DNA from: a virus
Lineage: Duplodnaviria > Caudoviricetes
DNA length: 64,000 bases
Virus record (IMG/VR): IMGVR_UViG_3300014205_000003
Span: 32,001-96,000 of that record
Direction: 5' to 3' (one strand)
Positions 2-34,226 of the stretch are shown piece by piece. Each line of letters opens with the position of its first letter. Position 1 is the first letter of the stretch. The position numbers and the translations under genes are program-made. The notes below the pieces were generated by a model. That model searched no databases. It saw nothing but the letters and a program-made list of their open reading frames with translations, and was not told the DNA's origin.

Positions 2-295
2 AACATTCCTGTAGGAGCTTCGATCAATCTTATTAGGAACGATCCTATTCTCTTTCAGAGTTCTAGGAACAAGGTAAGTTCTTTGCTTACTAGCAGTGCG
101 TCTGGCACACATACAAGCAGTTTCAACTTGACTAATGCTGCTGTGAATGCTGGAGTGGACTTCGGAGCGGCTTATTTGTTTGGACAGGGTGTTGGAAAGA
201 TCTTGGCTATTCCTCAGCCAGTTGTGAATCGTGTAAGTATGGCTGGAGGACTTGCCGCTGCTGTAATCGGATCTGGAGTGCTTAAACAGCTATGA
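2..295 (+). CDS. Partial (5'-truncated) hypothetical protein with Gly-rich hydrophobic helices
   Basis: Frame is open from the window start; segments GVDFGAAYLFGQGVG and AGGLAAAVIGSG; stop overlaps next ATG (ATGA). Confidence 0.7.
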   Translation, partial: NIPVGASINLIRNDPILFQSSRNKVSSLLTSSASGTHTSSFNLTNAAVNAGVDFGAAYLFGQGVGKILAIPQPVVNRVSMAGGLAAAVIGSGVLKQL

Positions 296-840
296 GTATT
301 TTAGACGAATCTGTTAGGTCTAATATTCAGAACATCAAGAAGTTGTTGGCTGCTATAGAGCGCGAGACACCTTCGATGTCACATCTTGCTGCAGATAGAT
401 CGAGAGCTACTGGTTATAATCCTAGAGAGGTACTCAAGAAGATCTTTCCAGATTACGAAACTACATTAAGTAAGAACTCTAAGGATGTTTCCAATATGCC
501 CACTAAACAAGCTTCTAAAGCTTACTTCAACGGATACATGTTTAAGAACGCTGGTTGGGGCGAAGCTCTTGGCGGCATCTTGGACAAGGCCACTGGAAGT
601 GCCTTAGCTCTTGGACAGAACACAGCTCTATTGGCTCCTGCGGCTGCTGGCTTGCTTGGTGGAGCGGCTGTAAGTAAGTTGACTTCTCCTTCTGGTGAGG
701 CAACTGTTGCTCAGAAGGCTTTGATTGCAGCTGAGTTGGAAGAAGCTGTTGCAGAGATGAAGCGTCAGCGTAAAATTGAAACCATTAAAGAGGTCATGCG
801 AGATGGACAAGGATACAAAGGTAGAAGTCTCCACATCTAA
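292..840 (+). CDS. Hypothetical putative virion protein (internal AYFNGYMFKNA motif, glycine-zipper helix)
   Basis: ORF track; translational coupling; motif shared with neighbouring genes. Confidence 0.75.
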   Translation: MSILDESVRSNIQNIKKLLAAIERETPSMSHLAADRSRATGYNPREVLKKIFPDYETTLSKNSKDVSNMPTKQASKAYFNGYMFKNAGWGEALGGILDKATGSALALGQNTALLAPAAAGLLGGAAVSKLTSPSGEATVAQKALIAAELEEAVAEMKRQRKIETIKEVMRDGQGYKGRSLHI

Positions 841-1147
841 GGAACCTAAAGAACCTTCGTGGCAAGGATTGCCTTTCAGAGGACAGATTCCTCACATTAA
901 GAAGGACGATCCTGAGCACATGCTTCCAGTAAAAGACTGGGACATCTTTGTTGAGATCTTCGACATAACTAATGCTGAACAGAAGGCTAAGTACATTGAG
1001 GTCTGCAACAAAGCTGTTAAAGGACAAGCTCAGTGTTTTATTGAGAAGTACTTGGATGTGAAGGACACGGTTAAGATCTATCTGAAGTGGGGAGAACCCT
1101 ACTACAGGAATCGTACTAAGACAGAGAAGTCGAGGATGCTATCCTGA
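803..1147 (+). CDS. Hypothetical protein
   Basis: ORF 776..1147 with likely ATG at 803; stop overlaps next start. Confidence 0.65.
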   Translation: MDKDTKVEVSTSKEPKEPSWQGLPFRGQIPHIKKDDPEHMLPVKDWDIFVEIFDITNAEQKAKYIEVCNKAVKGQAQCFIEKYLDVKDTVKIYLKWGEPYYRNRTKTEKSRMLS

Positions 1148-2019
1148 TGTCTAAAGACTCAAAGACACGCAATGAACAACTTGCTGTAGCTGCACGACAC
1201 GCTGCAGGTATCGGAGCAGGTTGGTTTACTCTTACTCTCCTTGCTCGTCAGCTGATGGATGCTGCGGGTAAGGCAGAGTCAGACGACTACAACAAAACCC
1301 TCAAGAGCCTTGTCAATGCTCGTCGTCCTACCTTCTCTCCTGACTTGAAACTCAACGATCAAGCCAAAGAAGATGCTATGGCGAACTTAGGCTCTACTGA
1401 AGAGACGTCTAAGGACATCAGTGCTCTGTTGAGCAAACGTGCTTCCGATGACAATGAGAAGGACTCTGGGATTGGTCGTAAGATTATGGACAAGTTCATC
1501 AATCCAGTTCCAGTAGGTCCTGGACCAGTTACTCCCGGAAGTGTTGCAGGAGCCTTTGGTAATACTGGAATACATCCTTTGCACATTGCCTTGACACTTG
1601 CCGCAGGTATTGCTGGTACAGCAGGTGGAATGGCACTCAGCAAGAAGCTGTCAAACAAGTCTAAAGAACGTGAACTGGACGAACGGATTCGCGTCAGTAA
1701 GCAAGAGATGGATCAATTGATTGCTGAAGAGTATCGTCGTACTCGCGGATTGGACAAGACTGCTAAGGACAATGACACGTTTCTTGAGAAGGGTTTGAGT
1801 GGAGCTACAAAGCTCTATCTGCTGTATGCGGCTGGAGTAGCCGCTTTGAGCTATGGCATCAGCAAGAAATATCTTGACGAGAACGATCCTAACAGGGCTC
1901 GCTTGAGTGCCTTGAAAGACTTAGCTAAGGATCGTGCTCGCATGAGTGGTGCTCCGCAGATCATGGTAGATCCTACAGATCCTACTTATAGTAAGCTTTC
2001 ACAACCAGCACAGGGATAA
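1147..2019 (+). CDS. Hypothetical protein with three Gly/Ala-rich hydrophobic segments
   Basis: ORF track; AAGIGAGWFTLTLL, ALTLAAGIAGTAGG, LYLLYAAGVAALSYG; KRA and KTA motifs. Confidence 0.8.
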   Translation: MSKDSKTRNEQLAVAARHAAGIGAGWFTLTLLARQLMDAAGKAESDDYNKTLKSLVNARRPTFSPDLKLNDQAKEDAMANLGSTEETSKDISALLSKRASDDNEKDSGIGRKIMDKFINPVPVGPGPVTPGSVAGAFGNTGIHPLHIALTLAAGIAGTAGGMALSKKLSNKSKERELDERIRVSKQEMDQLIAEEYRRTRGLDKTAKDNDTFLEKGLSGATKLYLLYAAGVAALSYGISKKYLDENDPNRARLSALKDLAKDRARMSGAPQIMVDPTDPTYSKLSQPAQG

Positions 2020-2024
2020 TTAAC

Positions 2025-2339
2025 ATGTCTAACGTAAAATTGCAGGCCTTTTACACAGGATATATGGAGAAACGTGCAGAGTTTCCTCCAGAAGCAAATG
2101 ACATTACTGGTGGGAAGATTAACCAGCTCCCAGAAGTGAAGAAAGCTACTTTAGAAGTTGTTAAGCCTGTTGCGGCGAAAGCACCCGCAACCTTTGTTGA
2201 TCCTGCTCCTAAGATGTCAGCAAATGCTCAACAGGTAGCTAACGAGACTATGCAGGATGCTGAGCGTATCAAAAAGAAACAAGCAACAGTTCCTGCACAG
2301 ACAGTAAAACGTGTGTCTTCGACTCCTAAGGACAAGTAA
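2025..2339 (+). CDS. Hypothetical protein with N-terminal AFxxGYxxKxA motif
   Basis: MSNVKLQAFYTGYMEKRA. Confidence 0.8.
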   Translation: MSNVKLQAFYTGYMEKRAEFPPEANDITGGKINQLPEVKKATLEVVKPVAAKAPATFVDPAPKMSANAQQVANETMQDAERIKKKQATVPAQTVKRVSSTPKDK

Positions 2340-2340
2340 C

Positions 2341-2898
2341 ATGGCTACCTTGGCAATTCAAGCATTCTTCGAAGGTTACATGACCAAGCAAGCTTCTCCA
2401 CTTGAGGGAGATGCTCCTACAGCTGGGACTGGCGGTGCTGGTCCTTCTCAGGAAGCTACTGGAGCTCTTGGAAGTGCTGTCGGCCAACCTGCAGGTGCTC
2501 AGCCTACGGCAGATGCTCAGCAAGGCCCTTCGAATGTTGCTCCTGATGCTTCTGCTGGAGCGGCTCCTGAGCAGGCTTCTGTGGGTGTTCAAGAGGCCCC
2601 TGCAGCCTTCAACAGTCCTATGCAGAAAGAGATGGCAGAGCGCGAGAAGAATAAGAAGAAGAATGCGGAAGCTGTTGCCAAGACTACTGAGAAAGTCCGT
2701 GGTGACATTCAGAAGCATGAGCAGAAGGCTCAAGAAGCTGTTCAGGAAGTTAAGGTTTCTCAGGTTAAAGGTAATTCTGAGATTCAGAAGGCTAACGCTG
2801 TTGCTCAAGTGTCCGCTCAGCAAGACAACCAGCTTGCAAAACAGCTTCAGCAGATGATGCCGAGAGCTATGCAACAGCAACCTCAGCAAGTCGCGTAA
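2341..2898 (+). CDS. Low-complexity A/Q/P-rich protein with N-terminal motif
   Basis: ATG at 2341: MATLAIQAFFEGYMTKQA. Confidence 0.8.
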   Translation: MATLAIQAFFEGYMTKQASPLEGDAPTAGTGGAGPSQEATGALGSAVGQPAGAQPTADAQQGPSNVAPDASAGAAPEQASVGVQEAPAAFNSPMQKEMAEREKNKKKNAEAVAKTTEKVRGDIQKHEQKAQEAVQEVKVSQVKGNSEIQKANAVAQVSAQQDNQLAKQLQQMMPRAMQQQPQQVA

Positions 2899-2913
2899 TA
2901 AGGAACACATAAG

Positions 2914-3144
2914 ATGAATATCCAACTACAAGCCTTTTATGCCGGATACATGAATAAGGATGCCAACTCAACTACAGAGAGTCCTACTGTGGATACTCCT
3001 GTAGCCAAGGTTGATCCTGTAGATCCTTCTGCAGAAAAGGGAATGGCAATCTCTACTAATTCTACTCCTACAGGGTTTGGTAAGGTGTTGAAGCAGAACA
3101 AGTCGATTTCTGTTCCTGAGAACAAGACTTCTGGAAACACCTAA
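2914..3144 (+). CDS. Small protein with N-terminal motif
   Basis: MNIQLQAFYAGYMNKDA; AAGGA RBS. Confidence 0.8.
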   Translation: MNIQLQAFYAGYMNKDANSTTESPTVDTPVAKVDPVDPSAEKGMAISTNSTPTGFGKVLKQNKSISVPENKTSGNT

Positions 3145-3353
3145 TGGATAAGCTGGCAGCATTCTTTGCAGGATACATGCACAAGTGTGCGGCTCTTCCA
3201 GCTGTGTTGCCGCCTTCTCCAATAACTGCTGATCCTGCGACAACCTACAAGACTCCTAGGACTAAGGGAACTCCTCAGCCAGGACAAGTTGTACAGAACA
3301 GTCCACTTCCTACGACTCCTTCAAATGTTATTCAGGAAGGTCCTTCGAAATGA
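3144..3353 (+). CDS. Small Pro-rich protein with N-terminal motif
   Basis: MDKLAAFFAGYMHKCA; coupled start/stop. Confidence 0.75.
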   Translation: MDKLAAFFAGYMHKCAALPAVLPPSPITADPATTYKTPRTKGTPQPGQVVQNSPLPTTPSNVIQEGPSK

Positions 3354-4327
3354 CAAAGCTTCAGACTCTTATTTATCTTCAAGGCTACCTGAGCAAGGAA
3401 GCTTTCGACTTCAATCCTTTTGGCGATCGCAAGGGGCGTGCACAAGATGCTAAGGCAAATGCTCGTACTGCTAAGATCAATGCAGCTGAAGCTAAGTCGA
3501 ATCGTCAGAGCTACTTGACTGCTAATGATCTAGGGCTTCAAGATGCTTTAGCTAATCGTGCAACAAATAAAGGTGTGTATGGTCAGATGACTGCAGCGGC
3601 AAATGCTAAAGCTGCTCAGACGCCTGCACCGACTCCTGCTGCTTCTCCAGAGCCTATGCAAGATCCTGCGATTACTCGAGCACAGCAAGTAGCTGCCGCT
3701 AAGAAGATGTCTCCCTATATGCGCGGAAGCACAATGCCTCGGGCTCAACAGCTTAATCAAGCTGCTCCAACTGTTGCACAAGCAACTCCTACAGCTACTC
3801 CTAAGACTGTTGTTGATCCTAATCCGATGAATACAGGAAATGTAGGCGAGAAGCAACGCACAGCACTTTTACAAGAAGAACAACCAAACATGAATCGGTT
3901 AGCTATTCAAACAAAAGCACCTGCAATGCCTCAGTATCCTAGGAAAAATGTTGTTCCTACCTCGCCTAGACCTACGAGAGCTCAAGCGGCGGCACTGAAG
4001 GGTGAGGTAGCTAGTATTAAAGCAGCGCAGACAGCCCAAACACAACAACCTGCAGCAACTCCTTCGTTTAGACCTGTTGCAGCTGTTCCCCAAGGACGTG
4101 CGGCGTATACAGCAAGTAACAAAGATGATATGGGTCAAATTAGAGCAGGTACTGCTACAATGAATCCCGAATGGCTAAAAAGACCGTCTGGGGATTTTTC
4201 AAATAGTCAAAAGCGTCGAGATCTGATTAGAAATCAGCTGGTTGCTTTGCAAAGAGGGAAACGGACTCCAGATATTAACCAAGTTGCAAAAAATACGGGT
4301 GTTAACCTGCTTCTTCCGGCACTATAA
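3350..4327 (+). CDS. A/Q/P/T-rich protein with variant N-terminal motif
   Basis: MTKLQTLIYLQGYLSKEA; coupled start/stop. Confidence 0.8.
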   Translation: MTKLQTLIYLQGYLSKEAFDFNPFGDRKGRAQDAKANARTAKINAAEAKSNRQSYLTANDLGLQDALANRATNKGVYGQMTAAANAKAAQTPAPTPAASPEPMQDPAITRAQQVAAAKKMSPYMRGSTMPRAQQLNQAAPTVAQATPTATPKTVVDPNPMNTGNVGEKQRTALLQEEQPNMNRLAIQTKAPAMPQYPRKNVVPTSPRPTRAQAAALKGEVASIKAAQTAQTQQPAATPSFRPVAAVPQGRAAYTASNKDDMGQIRAGTATMNPEWLKRPSGDFSNSQKRRDLIRNQLVALQRGKRTPDINQVAKNTGVNLLLPAL

Positions 4328-5271
4328 TGACATCTCTCTCACATCTCCTAGAGAAAGACGCAGCTCCTGTTGCGGGTCGAGGTCCATTGAAGACCGTCCT
4401 GCGACAAGCTGTTGATCATCCAGACAATCACGCTGTCTCTGAAGACCAGTTGATTGACCTGCATGACTATCCACGCCATCGCCAAGACATCTTCGACAAA
4501 ACCCTCAAAGGTGTCGAAGCCGCCTTCCCAAAAGCCAATACTAAACATACGTTGACAGTAACTGATCTGCACTACGATGGTCCTGATCACTACTCCAAAG
4601 AAGACTACAAGAACGCGATTCTTGAACGACGTTCGATGACTCGCAAGCTTGTAGGAAAGTACGTCCTTACAGACAACGCAACAGGTAAAGTGATTTCGAC
4701 TAGTGGTCGTAAAACCATAATGAACGTTCCTTACTTGACAGATCAAGGGACGTTTTTGCGTAACGGCACAGAATCTGTGATACCTAGGCAGCTTAGGCTT
4801 CAACCAGGAGTCTATACGCATATGACTTCTGATGGATATCCAGAAGCACAGTTCAACGTAAAGCCCGGAACGGGAAGTGGCTTTCGTACTTATCTAGATC
4901 CTGAGACGTCTGTCTTCTATATGACTACACGCGGACGCAAAATTCCCCTTTATCCCCTGATGCAAGCCCTAGGAGTCGATGACAGATCTTTGCAGGCTAC
5001 TTGGGGAGATGAGATCTTCAAGGCCAATCAGGAGATGCGTACGAGTTCTCATGCTGCTCGCTGGCTGAACGAAATGAATACTAAGCTTGCTCCGAAGGTT
5101 GTAGATGTTCCTGAAGTGGAAGAACAGGATGTGAATCCTGGCGACGAAGAACTGCCTACTTCCAATTATCAGGAGACACCTGACGATGAACTCACAGATC
5201 TTACAGTTGGAGAAGCTGATCGATTACCTTCTACCGTTTCTGGAGATCAAGGAATCCTCGAACAACCCTAA
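4327..5271 (+). CDS. rpoB: DNA-directed RNA polymerase beta subunit, N-terminal piece
   Basis: [30 protein letters not shown] matches RpoB [43 protein letters not shown]; acidic C-terminal tail. Confidence 0.9.
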   Translation: [314 protein letters not shown]

Positions 5272-5587
5272 AGCTGTTGGAGACAACGGCAAGGCTCGAG
5301 GAATCCTTCAGATACATCAGATCTTTGTTGACGACGTCAATCGAATATATGAAAGCAACTTCACTTGGGATGACTGCTGGAGCAAGAGTCTCTCCGAGCA
5401 AATAGTTAAGCTGTATCTTGTCCATTATGGTCAACGCTATATGGACAAGGAGAAGCAAGACTTAACGATCGACGTACTCGCTAGACTACATCAGGGTGGA
5501 CCAGATGGATATAAGCACACTTCTACAGTTCCTTACTGGCACGCAGTCAATCAAATCATTCGACATTCAGAAATAACGAACATGTAA
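5186..5587 (+). CDS. Lysozyme-like (destabilase/lytic transglycosylase-like) protein
   Basis: KESSNNPKAVGDNGKARGILQIH and ARLHQGGP..GY...YW, typical lysozyme-fold motifs. Confidence 0.7.
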   Translation: MNSQILQLEKLIDYLLPFLEIKESSNNPKAVGDNGKARGILQIHQIFVDDVNRIYESNFTWDDCWSKSLSEQIVKLYLVHYGQRYMDKEKQDLTIDVLARLHQGGPDGYKHTSTVPYWHAVNQIIRHSEITNM

Positions 5588-5608: not shown

Positions 5609-5799
5609 CTGGAGGATGCGTGTCACAGCTCTGGCAGAAAGCTCAAGTATACGAAGCACATGCTCATGGTGACGCAGAGATCGCAAGAATTATAGTGATT
5701 AATCGACAGTACGGTTTAGAGACGTTCAGTTGGGAAGTTTTGTTGAAGAGATATCAAGAGAGTCTTGTCACCTTGTTGCAGGGGCAGTGTAAGAACTAA
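5590..5799 (+). pseudogene. Possible remnant of a glycosyltransferase C-terminus
   Basis: RQYGLETFSWEVLLKRYQE resembles a GT4 C-terminal helix; no convincing start. Confidence 0.25.
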
Positions 5800-7055
5800 T
5801 GAGCATTTGTACGAATCTCTTGCAGGATGTAAATGCAGGATATCAAGTTGCAAGAAATATGGATAGACTGTATCCTTGTGTAGATCCTATTCAGCGTCTA
5901 CAGGAAATGCATCCTGTCATTGTAGACTACGGAAGTAACTTTGGGGCTTTCTCTCTTACACTCGCTCAGATGTTTCCTAACGCTACAGTCTTCTCTATTG
6001 AGAGTGGGGAGATGCAGTATAATCCTGATCCGAGGTTTATAACCTCTAAGGGAGTAAGCTATCAAACGCAGAAAAAGGCTGAAAGAGGTTTAACCAACTT
6101 AGAGATCGGCCAGACTCACCTTACTTGTGACTTCTTCGAGCGTATGCGCAGATCCAACTGTCATGTAAGTGTTCATTTGATGATGAGCTTCATTCACTGG
6201 TTGGATGTGAAGAACTACACCGACTTCAGAAACCTGATTGAGAATCTCGTCCTTACATCTAGGGTTGTAATCTTGGAGTTGCCCTGTAAGAATGTGGATC
6301 AGTACAATCGAGCTGTAATCGACAACTGGTATGAAGGCGTAGAGACACCTGCGGAACTTCTCAAGAAGGTAAACAGAGATACAAAGCTAAACTTCAAGTT
6401 GATTCAAGTACGTCTGGCTGCGGCCTGCAGTCGTCCAATCTTTGTACTAGAAAACACACAAGCAGTTGTCTGCGGACGTTCTCCAGAAGGCTTGAAGTAT
6501 ATACTCACAGAGCAGGACAAGAAAGAGCCTTTAAACGAGTTGAGAAGACTGCCTTGGACAAAGACAAGTGTCAGTACAGTTGCTACAGATATACTAGAAG
6601 CCTCGTTCAATGGTAAGCCGGTTATCTGTAAGACGTTTAGAGATGTGCTGACTTGGCCCGATGGTGGACCTGTGGAGGAATCTACTGCAGTACGTCTGGA
6701 TGTACTTAGACATTTGAAAGGTGTTGCAGGTGTTCCTGAGTATCTTGCCTATGACTCTTACACAAAGCGGTTGTATACGAGTCATTGTGGTTGCAGGTTA
6801 ACTAAAGCGAATCTGCCTGCTGACTGGAAAGTACAACTTACAGATTTGTACAGTAGTTTGTGGAATTGTGGGGTTCTGATAAACGACTTCAAGTTAGAGA
6901 ATCTAACGGTTAGGGATAAAAGATTGTCCTTGGTAGACTTTGGGGCTGACGCTTTGATAGGGATACATTGCAGGACATCTACATATTTGCAGTATCGAGA
7001 GAGTGAAACTGCGGAGAATAGTATTGGGTGTTTGATTCGAGTCTTGTCCTTGTAG
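5799..7055 (+). CDS. SAM-dependent methyltransferase fused to a kinase-like domain (WbdD-like architecture)
   Basis: IVDYGSNFGAFS SAM motif I; VICK, NDFKLENL and LVDFG kinase motifs. Confidence 0.7.
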   Translation: MSICTNLLQDVNAGYQVARNMDRLYPCVDPIQRLQEMHPVIVDYGSNFGAFSLTLAQMFPNATVFSIESGEMQYNPDPRFITSKGVSYQTQKKAERGLTNLEIGQTHLTCDFFERMRRSNCHVSVHLMMSFIHWLDVKNYTDFRNLIENLVLTSRVVILELPCKNVDQYNRAVIDNWYEGVETPAELLKKVNRDTKLNFKLIQVRLAAACSRPIFVLENTQAVVCGRSPEGLKYILTEQDKKEPLNELRRLPWTKTSVSTVATDILEASFNGKPVICKTFRDVLTWPDGGPVEESTAVRLDVLRHLKGVAGVPEYLAYDSYTKRLYTSHCGCRLTKANLPADWKVQLTDLYSSLWNCGVLINDFKLENLTVRDKRLSLVDFGADALIGIHCRTSTYLQYRESETAENSIGCLIRVLSL

Positions 7056-7117: not shown

Positions 7118-7375
7118 ATGAGTCAACTTCAATTGCAGGCTTTCTACTGTGGCTATATGGACAAGAAGGCGGCTGATCCTGCTAATCAGCAAGTGCTGGC
7201 AACCAAGCTGCAAGAGGAACAGACGAAACCTAAAGCAGGTATGTGGGGCCAGTTGCCGAGTGTTGTTGGACAGAAAATCAAAGATATAACCCTAGGCAAA
7301 CAGACTACTCCTAGTCTTAATCAGCAGATTGCTCCAGTTAAGAACACTCAGAAAGACTTGATGTCGTCCCTGTAA
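7118..7375 (+). CDS. Small protein with N-terminal motif
   Basis: MSQLQLQAFYCGYMDKKA; AAAGGA RBS. Confidence 0.8.
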   Translation: MSQLQLQAFYCGYMDKKAADPANQQVLATKLQEEQTKPKAGMWGQLPSVVGQKIKDITLGKQTTPSLNQQIAPVKNTQKDLMSSL

Positions 7376-7382
7376 CCTTAAT

Positions 7383-7455
7383 GCACTACTGGTGTTCAAT
7401 GGTAGCACATGACCCTTCCAAGGTTATGGAATCAGTTCGAATCTGATGTAGTGCT
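7383..7455 (+). tRNA. tRNA-Gly (TCC)
   Basis: Acceptor stem gcactac/gtagtgc, D-arm gtgttcaatggtagcac, anticodon arm tgacc-cttccaa-ggtta, T-loop ttcgaat; U discriminator; CCA not directly adjacent. Confidence 0.9.
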
Positions 7456-7519
7456 CTCCACTTAACTCTTATGTCAAAAGAAGATACAAGTCACAAAGCA
7501 GATCAGACGGAGGTGTCGG

Positions 7520-7804
7520 ATGATTCCGAGCCCCCTCTCAACTCTAGTTCTCTATGGACTGTATTTACTTGTTGGTGCGAGCGAGTGGTCGCTCTGTGTC
7601 GTTCGTACAAGGGCAATAGCCTTGAATCATGTGCGGACAGCGGTTGTTATTGTCTTTATCGAAAACGCGCTTTCGCTTTGGGTACTCTCGAACTTTGTAA
7701 GAAGTAATGACTTTGGTCTAGCGTTTGCTTATTGCTTAGGTGGTTCAATCGGGGCGTATACAGTTTGTAAGAGTTCTGCGGGGAATAAGACAAATGACAA
7801 ATAA
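7520..7804 (+). CDS. Small membrane protein, DUF2179/DUF5698-like
   Basis: Three hydrophobic helices; VVRT, FIEN and AYCLGGSIGAY pattern. Confidence 0.6.
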   Translation: MIPSPLSTLVLYGLYLLVGASEWSLCVVRTRAIALNHVRTAVVIVFIENALSLWVLSNFVRSNDFGLAFAYCLGGSIGAYTVCKSSAGNKTNDK

Positions 7805-8366
7805 TCAACTGAACGCTTTCTTCACTGGCTACTTGCAGAAGTCTGATACAGACACTATGCAGAAGACTGCCAACAGTGTAGATATGCCTATTGGAGAGTT
7901 CTCCAAGATTCAACCTTGGGATCTGTACAAGCGCTTAGGCATTGCAGACAATACTGGACACGCTCCTCGAATAGAAGCTATCATTGCCAGTCGCAGAGAA
8001 CAAGGACAGCGGCTCAATGGAGATACCGCTAAGGCCTTTGAGTGTACTAAGCTCGCCAATGACTCTACAGATGCACGCAAGTATAGAGACTTCGTCGACA
8101 ACGACGGCAAGTACAACAAGTCAAAAGACACTGATGTAGATAACGAAAAAGCAGAGCTTGCTGCTGGACGTAAGGTAGAGAAGGAACATACGAGTAATCC
8201 TGAGATTGCTACTCGCATAGCGAAGGATCATCTCGTTGAATCCAAGGAAAGTCCTCTAGGATACTACAAGGGCTTGAGCATGCTGGAACGATTCATGGAC
8301 AAGCTCAAGCAGAAAGCACGTCCAACAGAAGCCATCAAAGAGTTCGATGAGGTTACTAAGAAATGA
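7794..8366 (+). CDS. Protein with N-terminal motif and DUF5661-like domain
   Basis: MTNNQLNAFFTGYLQKS; ELAAGRKVEKEHT..IAKDHL.E...YY.GL. Confidence 0.7.
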   Translation: MTNNQLNAFFTGYLQKSDTDTMQKTANSVDMPIGEFSKIQPWDLYKRLGIADNTGHAPRIEAIIASRREQGQRLNGDTAKAFECTKLANDSTDARKYRDFVDNDGKYNKSKDTDVDNEKAELAAGRKVEKEHTSNPEIATRIAKDHLVESKESPLGYYKGLSMLERFMDKLKQKARPTEAIKEFDEVTKK

Positions 8367-8944
8367 CTAGAGCTCAGCAGACAGCTTTCATGCATGGTTA
8401 TCTGGAGAAGTCTGGGAGCATTGTACAGAACGGTATTCGTTTCTTTAGTCGTGCAGGATTAGGTACATCTACACTTAAACCTAGTCAGTTTGAGTTCATA
8501 GAAAGATCCAAAAGCTGGAATCCTGTTAATAGGATGTTTCTAAAGGCTCTTAAAATGGCGGGTGGAGAAAAAGCTTTAGCAAAAATACGTGATGCATCTA
8601 TGCTTGAGGATATACAACCCGGAACAGGTCTTGCAGGAGTCGCGGCGACAGGCGGAAAAGTTGTTGCGTTGGCAGATGCAAAAGCTTTCACGCCAATGCA
8701 ACGACGATCTGTTATAGCACACGAGGCATTTCACGCCAACAATCCGCAGATAGGTAAATATGAGTTACTAGCTCGTCTGTATGGAGGGTATAAATCCCAG
8801 AAGAGTAGCAGTCTGTTCTCCAGACTGAAAGCAAGTGCAGACGAAGGGAGAGATTATATATCTTCCTTCAAGAATCCAGAGTTTGCAAAGCATTATCCTA
8901 AATCTCCTTTTCAGAACGAGACGGTTAGACGTCTTTTTGTGTAA
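8363..8944 (+). CDS. Protein with N-terminal motif and HExxH zinc-metalloprotease-like motif
   Basis: MTRAQQTAFMHGYLEKSG; VIAHEAFHA followed by E. Confidence 0.65.
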   Translation: MTRAQQTAFMHGYLEKSGSIVQNGIRFFSRAGLGTSTLKPSQFEFIERSKSWNPVNRMFLKALKMAGGEKALAKIRDASMLEDIQPGTGLAGVAATGGKVVALADAKAFTPMQRRSVIAHEAFHANNPQIGKYELLARLYGGYKSQKSSSLFSRLKASADEGRDYISSFKNPEFAKHYPKSPFQNETVRRLFV

Positions 8945-12821: not shown

Positions 12822-12850
12822 TTGACAACTTTGACTTGGTGGTCTATATT
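12822..12850 (+). promoter_or_regulatory. Sigma70-type promoter of tnpB (probably leaderless transcript)
   Basis: TTGACA (12822-27), 17 nt, TATATT (12845-50); ATG at 12857. Confidence 0.75.
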
Positions 12851-12856
12851 AAGATT

Positions 12857-25929: not shown

Positions 25930-27398
25930 TCAACAAGTCTGTTACAGCTGCATTCTGGGACAGAGATCTAGAAGCTTCACATCTCATCGATGTAAGCTCT
26001 AAAGGTCTTGAGAAGTCTCAATTGGATAAGTACGCTGCTTCCAGCATCTTCAAGAATGCTGAGATTCATCCTGAAGACGGCTATGCATTCGTACACGTTA
26101 TTACCAATGCCAGTATGGATCACTATGGTCCAAACAGTAATAACGATGGCTTCAACGAAGCGGCTTGTGAATGGGAATTTCCCTGTAAGTGCGGACACCA
26201 GAAGACTGCGATGCTTGGTGGAGGTCTTAAGGAATATCACTCCACCTATATGCAGTACGGCGGTGCCTACAGGAATCACAAGAACTCTAAGAAGACTGAT
26301 CCTTCTACAGGCAAACCCTTTGAGAAGCTTGGAAGTATTGCCGCAGAAGCTTACAATGAAGACATGCACCGTGGCGAACTCATTCTCAAACTTCCTGTCA
26401 ATAAGTGGGGAGATGTTCTTGAGAAAGTAGCTAACAGTGAACCTGTCTGCTGGAGCATGGGTACGGCGGTTCCAACTGACTGCTGCTCAAGGTGTTGCAA
26501 CCGGGCTAAGAAGCGTAGTGACTACTGCGAGCACCTTAGATACGACATGGGTAAGATTGCAGAAGACGGTTCTCGTACCTTTGCTATCAACGATGTAACC
26601 TTCTATCACGACATCTCTGAAGTAGGGATGAATCCTGCTATGAAGGTTGCCTACACGCTTGAGAAGGTTGCAGCCTTTGGAATGATTCCTCAGAAGGACG
26701 AAATCGTACGTGAAGGCTTGTGGCTTCCTCTTGATCTGGTTAAGAAGCTTTCGTCTGAGCGCGAACGTTCTAGGATTGAAGTTCTGCAGAAGCTTGCAGC
26801 TAAGGAGAAAGAAACTCCTACAGAGTCTGATAAGAATCTTAGTGAAGCCTTTGAACACTCTGATGAAGAGCAGACAGATATTGCAGATAAGCTTAAGGGT
26901 GTTCCGCTTGATCAAGTTATCTCTCAAAGCAAGCAACATAAAGTTTTGTTGCCTCCTAAGAGTTTTAGCATTATAGTAATTCGTAGCGGCAAGCCTGCTG
27001 ACGACCAGACTCCTAACTGGTTAGAAGGGGTTCCTGAGAAGCTCAAGAGCATCTTTGGGGATATCCTTCAAGATCCCAACGATACTGAGGAAGTAGCCAG
27101 CGATGGTCACTACTCTCCTTCGTGTCACTTCCCAGATGTTAAGACTTCTCACAAGGTTAAAGATCTTGTACAGGATTTGTCCGTTGACCCTGAACCTGTT
27201 AAACAGAGAGCCATTAAAGCTTCTGTCAAAGGTAAAGAGAAGATGGATAAAAAGGCGTCAAGCTTGTCAGAAGTCGAGGATCAGATGGCTAGAGTGATGG
27301 CAAAGGAATACGCAAAGTATCAACTTGCATTCCTGTCAGACATCAGGACTCCATCAGATTGCTTGTCAATGGTAATAGCGCAAAACAGAGCTGGTTAA
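25926..27398 (+). CDS. Prohead (capsid maturation) protease with Zn-ribbon insertion
   Basis: YRNH (His), WSMG (Ser), CxxC..YCEH, HDISEV..PA: HK97/herpes-type protease pattern; position before scaffold and capsid genes. Confidence 0.8.
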   Translation: MINKSVTAAFWDRDLEASHLIDVSSKGLEKSQLDKYAASSIFKNAEIHPEDGYAFVHVITNASMDHYGPNSNNDGFNEAACEWEFPCKCGHQKTAMLGGGLKEYHSTYMQYGGAYRNHKNSKKTDPSTGKPFEKLGSIAAEAYNEDMHRGELILKLPVNKWGDVLEKVANSEPVCWSMGTAVPTDCCSRCCNRAKKRSDYCEHLRYDMGKIAEDGSRTFAINDVTFYHDISEVGMNPAMKVAYTLEKVAAFGMIPQKDEIVREGLWLPLDLVKKLSSERERSRIEVLQKLAAKEKETPTESDKNLSEAFEHSDEEQTDIADKLKGVPLDQVISQSKQHKVLLPPKSFSIIVIRSGKPADDQTPNWLEGVPEKLKSIFGDILQDPNDTEEVASDGHYSPSCHFPDVKTSHKVKDLVQDLSVDPEPVKQRAIKASVKGKEKMDKKASSLSEVEDQMARVMAKEYAKYQLAFLSDIRTPSDCLSMVIAQNRAG

Positions 27399-27413: not shown

Positions 27414-28520
27414 ATGGCGAAAACTACTCAGAACGTGCAGGATGCTTTCGATCTCGTGACTTCCATCTACAAAGAAGTCGAAGCTGCGAACTTTCCGAAA
27501 ACTGCAGAAGTGGGCAAAGACATCTCAGCTGGCACGGACAAAGTAAACGACGAAGAGAAGAAAGCTACTCCAGAGTCCCAGAGCGGTGCTGCGAGTGCTG
27601 CGGAAAATGCTAAGGATCAGCCTGGCAAAATGCCTGTGGCTAAAGGTGAGAGCGCGAAGAACACTGGCGCAACTGCTGTGAAGAATACTGAGCTTACTCC
27701 TATCGCTACTGCAGAAAAGCCTGCTGTTGCGAAGAAGGAGGTTGCTGCAATGTCAGATTCTGAGACTAAGACTGCTATGGCGCAGAAACAGGCTCAGGCT
27801 GAACGTCTCATGGACAACATCGTTGGTATCCTGAAGAGTGCTGAAGCTCCTGTGGAAGCCGCTGTTGATCCTCTGCAGAAGGAAGCGATGGACAAAGGTG
27901 CGGAGTATGCGTACTTCTACTACCTTGGTCGCAAGACTCGTCAGGAACACGCGATGGAGCTGAAAGAAGCTAACATTCGCGCTGACCTGCTGGACAAAGT
28001 TGGTGGCATTGATGGTCTGTTGGACAAAGCTGCTGAAGCTGATCCCGGCAGTGTGCTTCCCCCGGAGCTCGCTGGTGCGGCTGGTGCGATGCCTATGGAA
28101 GGTGCTATGCCTGCGGAAGCTGGTATGGAAGCTCCTGCTGAGGGTGGTGGCGACGACGAAGCCGCGCTTGAGCAGATCGCTCAGGTTCTCTCCGAGTCTG
28201 GTGTGAGTGCTGAAGAGCTTGAACAGATGATTCAGCAGATCAGTGCGCTGAAGGCTCAGGGTATGGACGACGAGCAGATCATGCAGGCGCTCTCTGAGTT
28301 GGCTGACGAAGCTGGTGGCGGCGCTGGTGCTCCTGGCGAAGGCGCTCCTGAGACTCCTGCGATGGAAGCTGCTGAAGATCCTGCTGTTGAAGCCGCTGAG
28401 ACTCCTGCTCAGGAAGCCTCTGAGCATCCTGAGAAGACTGCCAGCATCCAGAAGACTGCTGAACAGGTTCGTGCTGGCATCGACATTGCCAAAGCGTTCC
28501 TCCGTAACGGTGGCAAGTAA
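27414..28520 (+). CDS. Putative scaffolding protein
   Basis: Acidic, Ala/Glu-rich, helical; many KTA/KEA sites; between protease and capsid genes. Confidence 0.65.
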   Translation: MAKTTQNVQDAFDLVTSIYKEVEAANFPKTAEVGKDISAGTDKVNDEEKKATPESQSGAASAAENAKDQPGKMPVAKGESAKNTGATAVKNTELTPIATAEKPAVAKKEVAAMSDSETKTAMAQKQAQAERLMDNIVGILKSAEAPVEAAVDPLQKEAMDKGAEYAYFYYLGRKTRQEHAMELKEANIRADLLDKVGGIDGLLDKAAEADPGSVLPPELAGAAGAMPMEGAMPAEAGMEAPAEGGGDDEAALEQIAQVLSESGVSAEELEQMIQQISALKAQGMDDEQIMQALSELADEAGGGAGAPGEGAPETPAMEAAEDPAVEAAETPAQEASEHPEKTASIQKTAEQVRAGIDIAKAFLRNGGK

Positions 28521-28551
28521 GCTAGTACCTTGAAAGAATGAGGTACACACT

Positions 28552-28977
28552 ATGAACATTCCAGAAGCTCTCAAAGTTAAGTTGGTAGAACTACTCGAGC
28601 TCAATGACTCGATCAGGGCTGACTACGAGCAGAAAGTGGCTGAACTTGAAGGTAAACTTCAAGAACAGCTGACTAAGACTGCTAGTACAGCTGCCGTGAC
28701 AGTCCCTCAAGAGCTTGTGGAGAAGACAGCAGAAGCACTTACGTATGTAGGTGTGTTCACTAAGAAAGACAAAGCAGAAGTGATTAGTCGTCTAACGTCT
28801 GATCCTACCTTTGCTTTTACTTGCTTGGAGAAACTTGCTGCAATTGAAAAAGACCGTAAGGACACAGTTGTACCGCTGGGCAGAGTGGTGAAGAGCCGCC
28901 CTGCTGCTGGTGATTACAAGTGTGAAAGCGACCGAGTTTGGGACGAAGGCATCAAAGAACTTCGTCAGTACGTTTAA
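28552..28977 (+). CDS. Head morphogenesis protein (scaffold-like)
   Basis: Coiled-coil character; KTA motifs; position. Confidence 0.6.
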   Translation: MNIPEALKVKLVELLELNDSIRADYEQKVAELEGKLQEQLTKTASTAAVTVPQELVEKTAEALTYVGVFTKKDKAEVISRLTSDPTFAFTCLEKLAAIEKDRKDTVVPLGRVVKSRPAAGDYKCESDRVWDEGIKELRQYV

Positions 28978-29003
28978 CAGTTAAGATAGAAAGGGTTTAG
29001 CAA

Positions 29004-29534
29004 ATGGCTACTCCTGCTCAGAGCTACGATCATATCGTCCGCATCTCCAGCGGACCGATCGAGCCGCACACCCTTCAGTACGGTGCGGCTTACAAAGCGG
29101 CGGAAACTTTCGTCGCTGGTGCTTGTGTTTCGATGCATACCGATGGTACCCTTCAGGCTGGTTGCAGCGACACTGCGATGCCGATGTGGGCTATCAACGG
29201 CGTTGCGGACCTCGATGTTCAGGCTGAAGGCATTGCCTATGCTGGTGGTGCTGGCATTAGTGGTGGCAGCGTGAACGCGTATGTTGCTACTGGTGGTTAC
29301 GAGTTGTTTACCACTGAGTACGACAGCGCTACTGGGAATACCTATACTCCCAACTTCCTGCTCACTCCCGCGACTGCTACTGCGGATGTTGGCAAAGTGA
29401 CCTTGGCTGATCAGAATGCGTATTCTGCTCACATGGTCTGCGGCGTGGTCAGCCGTGGTGTCGTGGCCGAAAAGTTCAGCAAGAACGTCCTGTTCTTCTG
29501 GCCGGTGTATCTCCCCGCTTACAATGGTGCCTAA
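29004..29534 (+). CDS. Putative head decoration/cement protein
   Basis: Small beta-rich G/A/T protein directly upstream of the capsid gene; strong codon bias. Confidence 0.6.
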   Translation: MATPAQSYDHIVRISSGPIEPHTLQYGAAYKAAETFVAGACVSMHTDGTLQAGCSDTAMPMWAINGVADLDVQAEGIAYAGGAGISGGSVNAYVATGGYELFTTEYDSATGNTYTPNFLLTPATATADVGKVTLADQNAYSAHMVCGVVSRGVVAEKFSKNVLFFWPVYLPAYNGA

Positions 29535-29552
29535 TAAAGGAGGATGACTCAT

Positions 29553-30518
29553 ATGTACGATCCTACTGTCAAAGCTAAGAATGCCACCCTCCTGGACTCC
29601 CTCACGTCTACTGACGGGAATCTTCAGAAGGAAGCCGCTGGGAAACTCACCGACTACTTGATCGTCAAAGCTCGTGAAGATGGTATCTTCCGTAAGGTCC
29701 TTCCTCCGACTCCGGTCACGTGGGACGATATGGTTCCCCAGGTTGATAGCCTTAAGCCGGTTATCATCCGTGAAATGCAGCCCGAATCCAATGGCGCGTA
29801 CAGCTTGCCGTTTGGTGGTGTGCCCTATGACACCTTCTTCGGTGCCCCGCGCTATCGGATTACCTTCGATCGCGTCAAGAGCCGTCGAATGACTGCTGAC
29901 GTGATGAACCTCCGTGGCTATACGATGGACATCCGTCAGGTGTTCAACGACCTCCTGCTCAAGGACATCCTTGCTGAGGAAGATCGTAAGTTCATCGTGC
30001 AGTGCAATGCACTCGTTGGTGCGAAAAACTCGACTGCTACTGCGCGTTATACCGCCGTGGCTGCGAAGGGTTACATCGACCTCGGTGGTCCGATTAGCCG
30101 TTCGACCCTCGAGCTGTTCCGCGAAGCTCTTCCGAGCACCAATCGGCACTTGAATCCGGCCCTGGCACTCGTCAACAACGTGACCATCAATCAGGTGATC
30201 ACGCTTGACCGTGCTGCGATCGGTGGTGACATGGCTCAGGATATCCTGCAGGAAGGTTTCTCCAAGAACCGTCTCGTGGGTATGGACTGGATCTCCACTA
30301 TCAAGACCGATCTCGTTCCGAACAACGTCGCGTTCCAGTTCACCACGCCGGAAGCCCTCGGTGACTTCTGCGTGTTGGAAGATGTGACTGTGAGCACGAA
30401 ATCAGAGAATTATTTCTTTGAGATGTTCGCGTATGAAACTATCGGCGGCAGCATTGCGAACGTAGGCGCTTTGGCCAAAGCCTACTTCGGAGGCAGTACT
30501 GCCGGTGCTTGGGTGTAA
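29553..30518 (+). CDS. Major capsid protein (probably HK97 fold)
   Basis: AGGAGG RBS, strong codon bias, REDGIFRKVLPP, order protease-scaffold-decoration-capsid-terminator; N-terminal LQKEAA possible cleavage site. Confidence 0.8.
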   Translation: MYDPTVKAKNATLLDSLTSTDGNLQKEAAGKLTDYLIVKAREDGIFRKVLPPTPVTWDDMVPQVDSLKPVIIREMQPESNGAYSLPFGGVPYDTFFGAPRYRITFDRVKSRRMTADVMNLRGYTMDIRQVFNDLLLKDILAEEDRKFIVQCNALVGAKNSTATARYTAVAAKGYIDLGGPISRSTLELFREALPSTNRHLNPALALVNNVTINQVITLDRAAIGGDMAQDILQEGFSKNRLVGMDWISTIKTDLVPNNVAFQFTTPEALGDFCVLEDVTVSTKSENYFFEMFAYETIGGSIANVGALAKAYFGGSTAGAWV

Positions 30519-30557
30519 GCTGTATCTTACGTAGCTAGAAATAGTTACGGTACTTAG

Positions 30558-30590: not shown

Positions 30591-30600
30591 ACATGTTTTC

Positions 30601-30690
30601 AAACCACTTATACGAAATGTTTGCGTATGAAACTAAAACCGCTTCTTCGAAATGTTTGCGTACCTATAAAATAAATTCCACGAACCGCTT
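30601..30690 (+). repeat. Mini-array: RAACCRCTT x3 with two cgaaatgtttgcgta units resembling the capsid gene
   Basis: Repeats at 30601, 30636, 30682; 15-bp unit at 30613 and 30648. Confidence 0.8.
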
Positions 30691-30716
30691 GACGATGGGG
30701 TGCTTTATGATAAATT
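30689..30716 (+). promoter_or_regulatory. Putative sigma70 promoter of the HNH gene
   Basis: TTGACG, 16 nt, TAAATT with extended -10 TG. Confidence 0.45.
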
Positions 30717-30761
30717 ATTCTTAGGTAGAAATTCATCTATCTAAACAAAGGATACTAGAAA

Positions 30762-31808
30762 ATGCGTCCTCTCGAAACCAGAACCTGTGCATGTGGCAAG
30801 ACCTTCCAGATCAAACCGTACAGCAAGCAGCAGTGTTGCAGCTCTGTCTGTGGCGCTAACTTCCGTAAAGGGAAGACAGGCTTTAAGGATATGACAGGCC
30901 TTAAGGTCAACCTGCTTACAGCTACGCGTCAGGCTACGGATGATGACAAGAAGCATCTCCCTGTGATTGCTCAGCAAAAGATTCACTGGGTGTGCACTTG
31001 TGATTGTGGAAAGACGGGGGTTATTGTTGCAGGTGGTGATTTGCGTTCAGGTGCTGTTAAGAGCTGTGGTTGTGCACGTACTAAACGTCACCCTGAAGAC
31101 TATGTCTGCGAAGTCTGTGGAAAGACTTTTTCAGCTATTCCGTATCCTGGACGTCCTCATCGCGCTTGCTCCAATGAGTGCAAGATCCAGCTGGTGGGCG
31201 GTTTCCACAAGCGGAAAGACTATGTAGGGAAGCGATTTGGTCGTCTTACTGTACAGAGTGTTGACGAGACTTTGTCTGCGGCTCTTGATGGACGTAAGCA
31301 CTGCGTGTTGCATCTTAATTGTAAGTGTGACTGTGGTAAAGAGCTTGTTGTGAAAGCAAATGCTCTGAACAATGGTCAGAAGAGCTGTGGATGCTATCGA
31401 AAAGAACTTACTGCAGAGGATAATCGCATCTCTAGTGCTACAACTCTCTATAAGGTGTATGCGAAGAATGCCGCGAATCGTATGCTTCCCTTCGACCTAT
31501 CTCTTTCAGAGTTCATGCATATCGCTGGCCAAAAATGCCACTACTGCGGAGCTTTACCGAACACTCAAGGAAGCTACTGTGATCGTGTACAGGATCGTTC
31601 AAAAGCTTTTCCTGCTACTGGTGTGGACAGAAAGGACGCGAAGCTAGGTTACAGCTTAGAAAATTGCGTCAGCGCATGCTCATCCTGCAACCTTTCGAAG
31701 CAGTCTATGACCTATGATGATTACAGACAGCACCTGCTTAAATCTGCTGCACACATCATTAGTCAAGCAACTGTAGAAGTTATGCCTTCTGCAGAGCTTG
31801 CTGTTTAA
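30762..31808 (+). CDS. Free-standing HNH-type (His-Me finger) homing endonuclease with repeated Zn-binding DNA-binding domains
   Basis: CxCDCG...KSCGC modules x2; CHYCG...GVDRKD..GYSLENCV.AC..CN..K. Confidence 0.85.
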   Translation: MRPLETRTCACGKTFQIKPYSKQQCCSSVCGANFRKGKTGFKDMTGLKVNLLTATRQATDDDKKHLPVIAQQKIHWVCTCDCGKTGVIVAGGDLRSGAVKSCGCARTKRHPEDYVCEVCGKTFSAIPYPGRPHRACSNECKIQLVGGFHKRKDYVGKRFGRLTVQSVDETLSAALDGRKHCVLHLNCKCDCGKELVVKANALNNGQKSCGCYRKELTAEDNRISSATTLYKVYAKNAANRMLPFDLSLSEFMHIAGQKCHYCGALPNTQGSYCDRVQDRSKAFPATGVDRKDAKLGYSLENCVSACSSCNLSKQSMTYDDYRQHLLKSAAHIISQATVEVMPSAELAV

Positions 31809-31827
31809 GTTACACACGTTTTCTTCT

Positions 31828-31862
31828 AGGAGCCGCTTCTCAGGATATGGGGAGCGGCTCTT
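31828..31862 (+). terminator. Intergenic hairpin (terminator or processing site)
   Basis: aggagccgcttctca / tggggagcggctctt, 15-bp stem; weak U tract. Confidence 0.5.
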
Positions 31863-31928
31863 ATGCTTATCCGCTATATTAGGTAGTGTCGCAGTGACAT
31901 TTAAACTGCAAAACAAAGGAATCTAAAC

Positions 31929-32738: not shown

Positions 32739-33058
32739 ACATGAGTGAGCGCGTACTACTTTCGAGTGCAGCTTCTTTGAAGGGTGCGATTGAGGTTACT
32801 GCTTCTTCAGTTTTGAGTTTAGCTGAGGACGGCAAGAGGAATTTCTTGTACTTGTCGAACAACAGTTCGAATCCTGACGAGATTGTTTGGCTGGGCTTTG
32901 GAGTGCCTGCAGTGGTTGGAGAGGGTGTTCCTCTTTGTCCTGGGGGTGTTCCTGTAGTGATGTCTGGATCGACTGGCATCTATACTGGCGACATCTACAT
33001 GATTGCCAGTGAGGGTACTCCTTCTGTTTCTTGGCAGGTTCTCTGGTCGAACTGTTAA
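32735..33058 (+). CDS. Small beta-rich structural protein
   Basis: RNFLYLSNNS..VWLGFG..GVPLCPG; lies in structural operon. Confidence 0.55.
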   Translation: MNMSERVLLSSAASLKGAIEVTASSVLSLAEDGKRNFLYLSNNSSNPDEIVWLGFGVPAVVGEGVPLCPGGVPVVMSGSTGIYTGDIYMIASEGTPSVSWQVLWSNC

Positions 33059-33072
33059 CGAGGGTAAGCTAG

Positions 33073-33900
33073 ATGCCGCTTCCACTCACCTTGATGGATA
33101 CTGATGGATTGTCTCCAGCAGGTTATCCAGTGCTTCAGCTTCAGCAGGCTACAGAGCAGAACGTTGCTGTGTACTTGAAGGAGGCTGACGGGACTGAATA
33201 TGTCGCGGCATCTGGCAACGTTGTAACTCTTACGACTTCTGAGACTCTTGCTGGATATCCTGTAGACATGTTAATCACATGTACGTGGACAACTCCTTCT
33301 ACAGGACTTATAAATGTTCCAGTACCTCACGACGAAGAGCAGACTCCTGGAATCTGGATTGGCGAGTTTACAGTCTACGAAGACAGTACTCAGGCAAAGG
33401 CTTTACGCAGGTTTAGGTGTTATGTCGAGATTCAGCCATCGTTGGCTAAGCTTGGACAGGCTCAGGTAAATGCTCCTCTGTCTATTGCAGAGATTCGAAT
33501 GGCTATGCGGGACAGATGTGCGGAAGATAACTTCTTGCTTGACAGTATGGAATTCTCTGACTCGGAGATAGCTTTCTGCATACGTCGTCCAGTAGATTGG
33601 TGGAATGAGACTGCTCAACGGCTTCGGATTGCTACATATACGTATACGACGTTTCCTTACAGGTATCATTGGTTGGATGCTACTGTAGGGGAACTGTTGA
33701 AGATTGGCAGTTACAACTTGAACAGGAATCGGATCACTTTGAATGCTGGTGGGATCAACACAGACGACAAAGAGCGCGGGAAGCTCTATCTGGAGTTGTC
33801 GGACAAGTTGATTAAGGAGTACCACAGTTGGGGTACTGCTCAGATGAAGGGTTTGAATCTTCAGGGTTGGGGTGGCTTTGTACGCAACGGGTGGTTCTAA
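33073..33900 (+). CDS. Putative neck/head-tail adaptor protein
   Basis: EIRMAMRD...FSDSEI pattern; position after capsid gene. Confidence 0.55.
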   Translation: MPLPLTLMDTDGLSPAGYPVLQLQQATEQNVAVYLKEADGTEYVAASGNVVTLTTSETLAGYPVDMLITCTWTTPSTGLINVPVPHDEEQTPGIWIGEFTVYEDSTQAKALRRFRCYVEIQPSLAKLGQAQVNAPLSIAEIRMAMRDRCAEDNFLLDSMEFSDSEIAFCIRRPVDWWNETAQRLRIATYTYTTFPYRYHWLDATVGELLKIGSYNLNRNRITLNAGGINTDDKERGKLYLELSDKLIKEYHSWGTAQMKGLNLQGWGGFVRNGWF

Positions 33901-34226
33901 TGTCTAAAGTATCTCTACAGGCTTTCTTCTCTGGGTATATGTCAAAGAGTGCAGCCTTCTTCACTTCTGACGGAAAGCCGTATAAGCCGTATCCAGATCT
34001 GTATCCTAAACTTCCTGATCCTACAGCAAAAGAGAAAGAACTGGCGGCGTGGTGGAATCAAGATGATAAGAAGATAAAACAACCAGAGAGCACAAGTAAA
34101 GCTCTTGAGGAGTTTGGTAAAAGTTGGAAGAAAGCAGAACCTCCCAAAGGTCTTACAGGTTGGCCAGATGTGAGCAAACTTAAAAAGATACTCAATGTGG
34201 TTTTACGTATCGGTAAGGCTAAGTAG
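33900..34226 (+). CDS. Small protein with N-terminal AFxxGYxxKxA motif
   Basis: ATG at 33900: MSKVSLQAFFSGYMSKSA. Confidence 0.75.
   Translation: MSKVSLQAFFSGYMSKSAAFFTSDGKPYKPYPDLYPKLPDPTAKEKELAAWWNQDDKKIKQPESTSKALEEFGKSWKKAEPPKGLTGWPDVSKLKKILNVVLRIGKAK

Follow-up and report, generated by a model that had tools for sequence, protein, structure and literature searches.

A candidate two-part capsid-loading leader and a predicted Lys-x-Ala prohead protease site in a largely uncultured phage clade

The DNA described here, called the window throughout, is a 64,000-nucleotide stretch of phage sequence (bases 32001-96000 of one phage contig 188,069 bp long, IMG/VR record IMGVR_UViG_3300014205_000003). 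Our subject is a peptide of 13 residues, the tag, that stands at the start of otherwise dissimilar proteins encoded near the head genes, together with the short motif in which the tag usually ends. The nearest cultured relatives, Salmonella phage Arash and three Vibrio phages, are distant; the fused beta/beta' RNA polymerase is 31% identical. Comparison with Arash places the portal gene at genome positions 28094-29947, just upstream of the window. Within the window, it places pieces of a virion-type RNA polymerase at 4327-5271, 8971-12663 and 16573-18405, the capsid protein gene at 29544-30518, and the large terminase gene at 57291-59078 (minus strand). The tag pattern, h-x-A-[FY]-h-x-G-Y-[MLV]-x-K-x-A (h, a hydrophobic residue), occurs 13 times in the whole genome. 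Three copies, at genome positions 26316, 30315 and 30898, precede the window and flank the portal gene. The other ten are in the window; an earlier note on this sequence had described about ten such proteins, and all ten of the peptides it listed are present where it placed them. The tag genes of the window are as follows, with scores from a profile built from the 13 copies:

496-840, plus strand: tag gene, 114 amino acids from the ATG at 496; 20.7 bits; AAGGA ribosome-binding site
2025-2339, plus strand: tag gene, 104 amino acids, low-complexity body; 28.3 bits; the invariant Gly is residue 12
2341-2898, plus strand: tag gene, 185 amino acids, Ala/Gln/Pro-rich body; 25.8 bits; start codon and ribosome-binding site
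2914-3144, plus strand: tag gene, 76 amino acids; 29.8 bits
3144-3353, plus strand: tag gene, 69 amino acids; 27.1 bits
3350-4327, plus strand: tag gene, 325 amino acids, basic (net charge +22) and of low complexity, as judged from composition; 18.9 bits
7118-7375, plus strand: tag gene, 85 amino acids; 29.5 bits
7794-8366, plus strand: tag gene, 190 amino acids, with a weak DUF5661-like stretch (PF18905, E 2.5e-4, below the cut-off); 25.7 bits
8363-8944, plus strand: tag gene, 193 amino acids, with an HExxH motif; 22.2 bits
33900-34226, plus strand: tag gene, 108 amino acids, downstream of the capsid gene; 27.0 bits

The profile separates the tag from the rest of the genome. The 13 copies score 18.9-29.8 bits; no other six-frame match exceeds 5.6 bits, and shuffled proteomes (n=20) reach at most 10.0 bits. 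Profiling N-termini across the genome and its relatives had been suggested in the earlier note as a check on the tag, and it returned these 13 copies and about 50 more in relatives (see below). In the alignment, G, Y and K are invariant, and the consensus is M-x-x-x-Q-L-x-A-F-x-x-G-Y-M-x-K-x-A. An ATG lies 2-4 residues ahead of the profile match in every case, preceded by an AAGGA-like ribosome-binding site. The tag is thus strictly N-terminal in all 13 proteins, with the invariant Gly at residue 10-13. This count includes a copy that had been taken as internal to the open reading frame (ORF) at 292-840; that copy is really N-terminal, since an in-frame ATG at 496 stands four residues before it and carries its own AAGGA ribosome-binding site 9-12 nucleotides upstream, as in other tag genes. 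All 13 tag genes are encoded on the same strand as the portal and capsid genes, at genome positions 26-40 kb and 66 kb, and the whole-genome profile scan found the tag confined to head-region genes rather than equally common in non-virion genes.

Different codons are used at 54% of identical tag residues, in line with the remark in the earlier note that codons differ, and the tag is therefore conserved at the protein level; an RNA-level element or a recent DNA duplication was rejected on the same count. A resemblance to PIP-box or other clamp-binding peptides was likewise rejected, the Gln not being conserved and the context being wrong.

What follows the tag is highly variable. The tagged bodies have no pairwise similarity (best blastp E 0.4), which bears out the description of the downstream sequences as unrelated. 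The two domain-level features that had been named differ in standing: the HExxH motif in the ORF at 8363 is present, and the DUF5661-like match in the ORF at 7794 exists at the weak level given above. When 5.8 billion proteins were searched with the HExxH tag protein, no homolog came up but the query. Most bodies are polar and of low complexity, with 62-83% polar or small residues, and 12 of the 13 have a net charge of zero or above, up to +22. Several tagged proteins have hydrophobic segments resembling Gly zippers. Such Gly/Ala-rich hydrophobic stretches ending in Lys also occur in many proteins encoded after the portal gene, tagged and untagged; examples are the window ORFs 2-295, 496-840, 1147-2019 and 15893-16570, and ORFs 15898-16257 and 16898-17245 of related locus L006. 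A tagged protein of another relative (L035) has a weak Pfam match to a Gly zipper. These Gly-zipper-like products are possibly membrane-inserting ejection proteins.

We gathered the loci of relatives with portal and protease alignments; a related-loci search with the single RNA polymerase sequence found none. Among relatives whose portal proteins are roughly 33% identical or more, there are about 50 further distinct tagged ORFs, almost all with the tag at the N-terminus, on the portal strand, and adjoining the portal gene or upstream of the protease gene. The tag is far more conserved than its cargo, since 52 clusters remain when the 56 distinct tagged bodies are grouped at E 1e-4. The only tagged family shared between phages is that of the gene at window position 496, with homologs in L032, L042 and L062. 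A Pfam scan of ten tagged proteins of relatives gave nothing above the cut-off. Tag variants have insertions of one to six residues that part G-Y from the K-x-A unit, and a protein of one relative (L009:11834-12592) has two complete tandem tags in its first 45 residues. Together, these insertions and the tandem tag suggest that the tag is made of two separable modules. Arash and the relatives whose portals are about 31% identical or less keep h-x-K-x-A and have no aromatic box, as we term the front half of the tag, A-[FY]-h-x-G-Y. Since the site motif is kept there without the box, the box is, on this comparison, apparently a later addition in one sub-clade. More distant relatives (L148, at 2235 and 2484; L111, at 3268) have a repeated unit, Q-G-F-[IM]-[DE]-K-C-A-E, that also occurs internally and may be a diverged tag or site.

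Which enzyme might recognize the back half of the tag? The candidate lies in the head module, whose relevant genes, with one gene encoded elsewhere, are listed here; expected site numbers are explained below.

19805-21967, plus strand: head-module protein of 720 amino acids; 6 predicted cut sites, 1.2 expected
24352-25929, plus strand: head-module protein of 525 amino acids; 8 predicted cut sites in the first 260 residues, 1.92 expected
25926-27398, plus strand: predicted prohead protease; the N-terminal domain (residues 1-235) has the gp21/assemblin fold, and a disordered linker (237-267) joins it to a helical C-terminal domain
27414-28520, plus strand: acidic, Ala/Glu-rich scaffold-like protein of 368 amino acids, between the protease and capsid genes; 6 predicted cut sites, 1.18 expected
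28552-28977, plus strand: small head-module protein; 3 predicted cut sites, 0.41 expected
29544-30518, plus strand: major capsid protein, HK97 fold (Foldseek match to the HK97 capsid, E 1e-9, probability 1.00); predicted cut site at residues 27-31
56176-57225, minus strand: protein of 349 amino acids adjoining the large terminase gene; 11 predicted cut sites, 0.92 expected, z 10.4

The AlphaFold2 model of the 25926-27398 product (pLDDT 87.6; alignment of 59 homologs) has a beta-rich domain at residues 1-235. In a structure search independent of Foldseek, its best match was T4 gp21 (5jbl_A; Z 11.0, rmsd 3.0, 146 of 165 residues). The next matches, the proteases of varicella-zoster virus (Z 6.0) and human cytomegalovirus (Z 4.3), stood well above unrelated rows. 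Foldseek with the whole model, the protease profile against PDB sequences, and a Pfam scan each returned no match; PHROG 18299, 'head maturation protease', was matched marginally (E 0.0094). Among the 59 homologs, H118 and S177 are invariant, and H57, H105 and H203 are nearly so. On the strength of the model, the gene is predicted to encode a prohead protease that folds like T4 gp21. An exhaustive search retrieved 2,081 homologs, and the order protease gene, scaffold-like genes, capsid gene is kept in 68 related loci. An HNH endonuclease gene lies directly 3' of the capsid gene in the window (30762-31808; PHROG 374, E 4.5e-24). Three ORFs resembling TnpB/Cas12f lie within the head and RNA polymerase module, at 12836-13900 (plus strand), 18402-19460 (minus strand) and 22025-23095 (plus strand), as judged from PHROG 506 (transposase) and the Pfam Cas12f1-like TNB family.

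The motif at the end of the tag recurs in these head proteins. We counted h-x-K-x-A, as [LMIVFY]-x-K-x-A, in each protein and took the expectation from shuffles of the same protein. Six proteins together have 41 sites where about 7 are expected (6.8-7.1), an enrichment of about 6-fold: the contiguous head-module run of 19805-21967, 24352-25929, the protease (7 sites, 1.05 expected), 27414-28520 and 28552-28977, plus 56176-57225. Elsewhere in the proteome the motif is at chance level: 91 sites, the tags making up 10 of them, where shuffles predict 86. K and A gave a z of 13 among the 400 patterns of the form h-x-X-x-Z, with the runner-up at 4.7, and K-x-A was also the top enriched pair in an unbiased scan of residue pairs. 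Counts in the head proteins were at expectation when Arg or Glu replaced Lys, or Ser or Gly replaced Ala, and the Glu-type motifs (L/I)-x-E and (S/A/G)-x-E showed no enrichment there. The residue after Ala is Glu, Ala or Ser at 29 of the 41 sites. An early site proved unusable as a predictor, the first 30 residues of all proteins holding 24 h-x-K-x-A sites against 20 expected. The 56176-57225 product has the densest h-x-K-x-A content in the genome, and may be a second scaffold or core protein encoded outside the head module.

Since the protein set had been chosen by its own statistic, we sought replication in relatives and in Arash. The 59 protease homologs have 7.1 sites each against 0.96 expected, and four positions, residues 35, 167, 247 and 289, keep their site in 44-56 of them; residue 247 is in the disordered linker after the catalytic domain. 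Across 54 related loci of metagenomic phages, in which the motif runs at about 5 times expectation, there are 352 sites against 67 expected in the protease ORFs, 483 against 93 in ORFs between the protease and capsid genes, and 751 against 204 in ORFs lying upstream. The capsid protein site at residues 27-31 falls within the 40 N-terminal residues that are modelled at low confidence; about 28 homologs keep h-x-K-x-A there, and homologs further away keep K-x-A.

In Arash (OQ632216), five proteins are enriched 5-12 fold: gp220 (9 sites, 0.8 expected), gp223 (8, 0.7), gp225 (6, 0.5), gp222 (6, 1.0) and gp218 (4, 0.75). Of these, gp222 is the homolog of the modelled protease; the Arash paper annotates no protease. 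There is a site at residues 25-29 of the capsid protein, gp226, and the RNA polymerase, gp206, begins M-P-K-S-A. This polymerase was the most abundant protein in the Arash virion preparation (PMC10585845). Its counterpart in the window has a short leader with the same motif, and the leader is conserved in L007 and L032. Two of its pieces are:

4327-5271, plus strand: N-terminal piece of the virion-type RNA polymerase, homologous to Arash gp206; short leader with h-x-K-x-A at residues 8-12
8971-12663, plus strand: main piece of the fused beta/beta' RNA polymerase (Pfam Rpb2_6, E 2.5e-33; Rpb1_2, E 4.8e-17); 31% identity to Arash gp206

The gene is thus split here, its N-terminal 314 amino acids lying 3.7 kb from the rest, where Arash has one ORF of 1525 amino acids. 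The 3.7-kb interval holds a destabilase-like lysozyme (5186-5587; Pfam E 1.2e-5), an orphan of 418 amino acids (5799-7055), and three tag genes.

What might the tag do? We think it probable that the tag is a two-part prohead leader, with a box that docks cargo, and a cut site, h-x-K-x-A, at which the gp21-fold protease removes the leader so that the cargo stays in the head. The aromatic box would attach the protein to the assembling prohead core; possible docking partners are the scaffold, the helical C-terminal domain of the protease, and the inner face of the capsid protein. The back half, [ML]-x-K-x-A, would be the recognition site of the phage's own protease. After closure of the shell the protease would remove the leader, leaving the mature protein in the head with the DNA. 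The same protease would trim the N-terminus of the capsid protein, itself and the short leader of the RNA polymerase, and would cut the scaffold-like proteins at many sites. The bond cut could be the one following Ala, which is the position in herpesvirus assemblin sites, or the one following Lys, which would parallel h-x-E in T4. Because they are mostly small, basic and of low complexity, several with Gly-zipper-like segments, the cargo proteins are best read as internal or ejection proteins that would leave with the DNA. The capsid-targeting tag ending in a K-x-A cut site had been put forward in the earlier note, and all the computational predictions tested held; packaging and cleavage, together with docking, the bond cut and ejection, are what we infer from them.

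Several observations weigh against this account. The six enriched proteins were picked by the enrichment itself, a bias that replication in relatives and in Arash offsets in part. Three of the 13 tags end in K-x-S, K-x-D or K-x-G; only ten end in h-x-K-x-A. The tag forms no clear amphipathic helix, its helical hydrophobic moment (0.13) being below that of shuffles (0.21), and the idea of such a helix was dropped. Known gp21-type proteases, those of T4, phiKZ, 201phi2-1 and SPN3US, all cut after Glu (PMC5694885, PMC10052503), and a Lys/Ala site would be a departure. This phage and all its tag-bearing relatives are uncultured. The search for the tag in the Arash genome found none, and since Arash keeps the site motif, loading is evidently possible without the aromatic box. 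Furthermore, the Arash virion list is broad, with 116 proteins that include ribonucleotide reductases, and gives no mature N-termini (PMC10585845).

The presence of the cut motif without the box in Arash would also fit a leader that is a propeptide removed by the protease rather than a loading signal. Such a propeptide could keep membrane-active or DNA-binding cargo inert or soluble up to its arrival in the head, or recruit a chaperone, while other parts of the protein direct incorporation. The Gly-zipper-like segments in several tagged proteins, possibly harmful if exposed early, point the same way, and T4 propeptides have chaperone-related roles too (PMC10052503). However, the tagged bodies share nothing else that could direct loading, and the strict conservation of an aromatic box across about 60 unrelated bodies implies that all of them bind one partner. 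We regard the propeptide explanation as unlikely.

A second alternative, which we judge decidedly unlikely, is that h-x-K-x-A is a binding motif that is never cut, the tag and the scaffold-like repeats anchoring proteins to the inner surface of the capsid in the manner of encapsulins. The capsid protein has the HK97 fold, as encapsulins do, and many copies of the motif in scaffold-like proteins would suit multivalent binding. But the motif also occurs in the disordered linker of the protease, at the N-terminus of the capsid protein and within residues 1-12 of the RNA polymerase, a distribution typical of T4- and phiKZ-type cleavage sites, and the phage encodes a gp21-fold protease.

It is very unlikely that the 13 tag genes are simply tandemly duplicated paralogs, recognizable now only at the N-terminus, with no portable module. 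Five of them do form a head-to-tail run at 2025-4327, and another three do so at 7118-8944, and low-complexity bodies diverge fast. Against this, tagged proteins range from 69 to 848 amino acids, some have distinct globular-looking regions (HExxH, DUF5661-like), and the clustering leaves 52 groups among 56 bodies. Moreover, keeping just the 13 N-terminal residues would still need a function, so that this explanation concerns history and not mechanism. Finally, a role away from the capsid, as a membrane or secretion signal, a docking motif for a host factor or an RNA-level signal, deserves hardly any credence: nothing specific favours it beyond a loose likeness to Q-x-x-h-x-x-a-a clamp-binding boxes, whose Gln is not conserved in the tag, the varying codons exclude an RNA element, there is no hydrophobic core like that of a signal peptide, and the genes occur only in the head module.

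We give even chances to a broader proposal: that a large, almost entirely uncultured phage clade re-tuned its gp21-fold protease from cutting after Glu to Lys-x-Ala, and that one sub-clade added a portable docking box, giving a 13-residue tag that loads an open-ended, fast-changing set of cargo. The clade is represented by more than 2,000 protease homologs at 50% clustering, and its isolates are only Arash and the three Vibrio phages. The capsid-targeting principle would then extend to an unstudied phage family with virion RNA polymerases, with a new protease specificity that could be checked in an existing isolate, Arash. About 60 orphan proteins would be marked as probably injected, some of them candidates for a part in host takeover or anti-defence. 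The tag and protease would together form an orthogonal, engineerable packaging system, and the tag would provide a second means, orthogonal in sequence, of loading foreign proteins into phage heads. For annotation within the clade, an N-terminal A-F/Y-h-x-G-Y-M/L-x-K-x-A could be taken to predict a head-internal protein.

How does the proposed system compare with those already described? Encapsulin cargo-loading peptides are C-terminal and uncleaved, with no protease involved. Like them, the tag is short, has a conserved Gly with hydrophobic residues and Lys, and is attached to unrelated cargo that would be loaded into an HK97-fold shell; unlike them, it is strictly N-terminal. The maturation sites of herpesvirus assemblin are (V/L/I)-x-A followed by Ser. 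The protease fold is related to that predicted here, and the assemblin site and the predicted one both include Ala with a small residue after it; in contrast, the context here is a phage and an invariant Lys stands two residues before the Ala.

The resemblance to the giant phages phiKZ and SPN3US is closer in the enzyme than in the leader. Their gp21-type proteases (phiKZ gp175, SPN3US gp245) have a C-terminal extension that carries cut motifs and is associated with autoprocessing (PMC5694885, PMC7411985, PMC10052503), as the one described here appears to have; the linker site at residue 247 recalls the C-terminal autoprocessing of both (PMC5694885). As in those phages, the genes for the head, ejection proteins and virion RNA polymerase lie in one module, and the packaged polymerase is of the multi-subunit type. 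However, the phiKZ and SPN3US enzymes cut after A/S/G-x-E, and most of their propeptides are long (111-254 residues), with no shared short tag.

The closest parallel is T4, in which the internal proteins IPI-III and Alt have a capsid-targeting sequence (CTS) that is removed by the prohead protease gp21 (Mullaney and Black 1996; PMC3012670, PMC5694885). T4 internal proteins have only the CTS in common, and it is more conserved than the cargo (PMC3012670). The tag is, like the CTS (10-20 residues in T4), a short N-terminal leader on unrelated, fast-evolving proteins that ends in a protease cut motif, here a predicted one. Both phages have a gp21-fold protease, with many copies of the motif in scaffold proteins and a single one near the N-terminus of the capsid protein. 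The differences are that the tag has no sequence similarity to the T4 CTS and has its own aromatic G-Y box, that the predicted site is h-x-K-x-A rather than (L/I)-x-E, with no Glu at the tag site, and that the capsid protein, of the HK97 type, is small (324 amino acids). Capsid-targeting leaders are known experimentally in T4 and, in a longer form, in phiKZ-like giant phages, all with Glu-specific proteases. Since known gp21-type enzymes all cut after Glu, no other element here is as novel as the predicted Lys/Ala specificity, or needs a test as much. The principle, that of the T4 capsid-targeting sequence, is known; the novelty here lies in the combination of another tag, another predicted protease specificity and another phage family.

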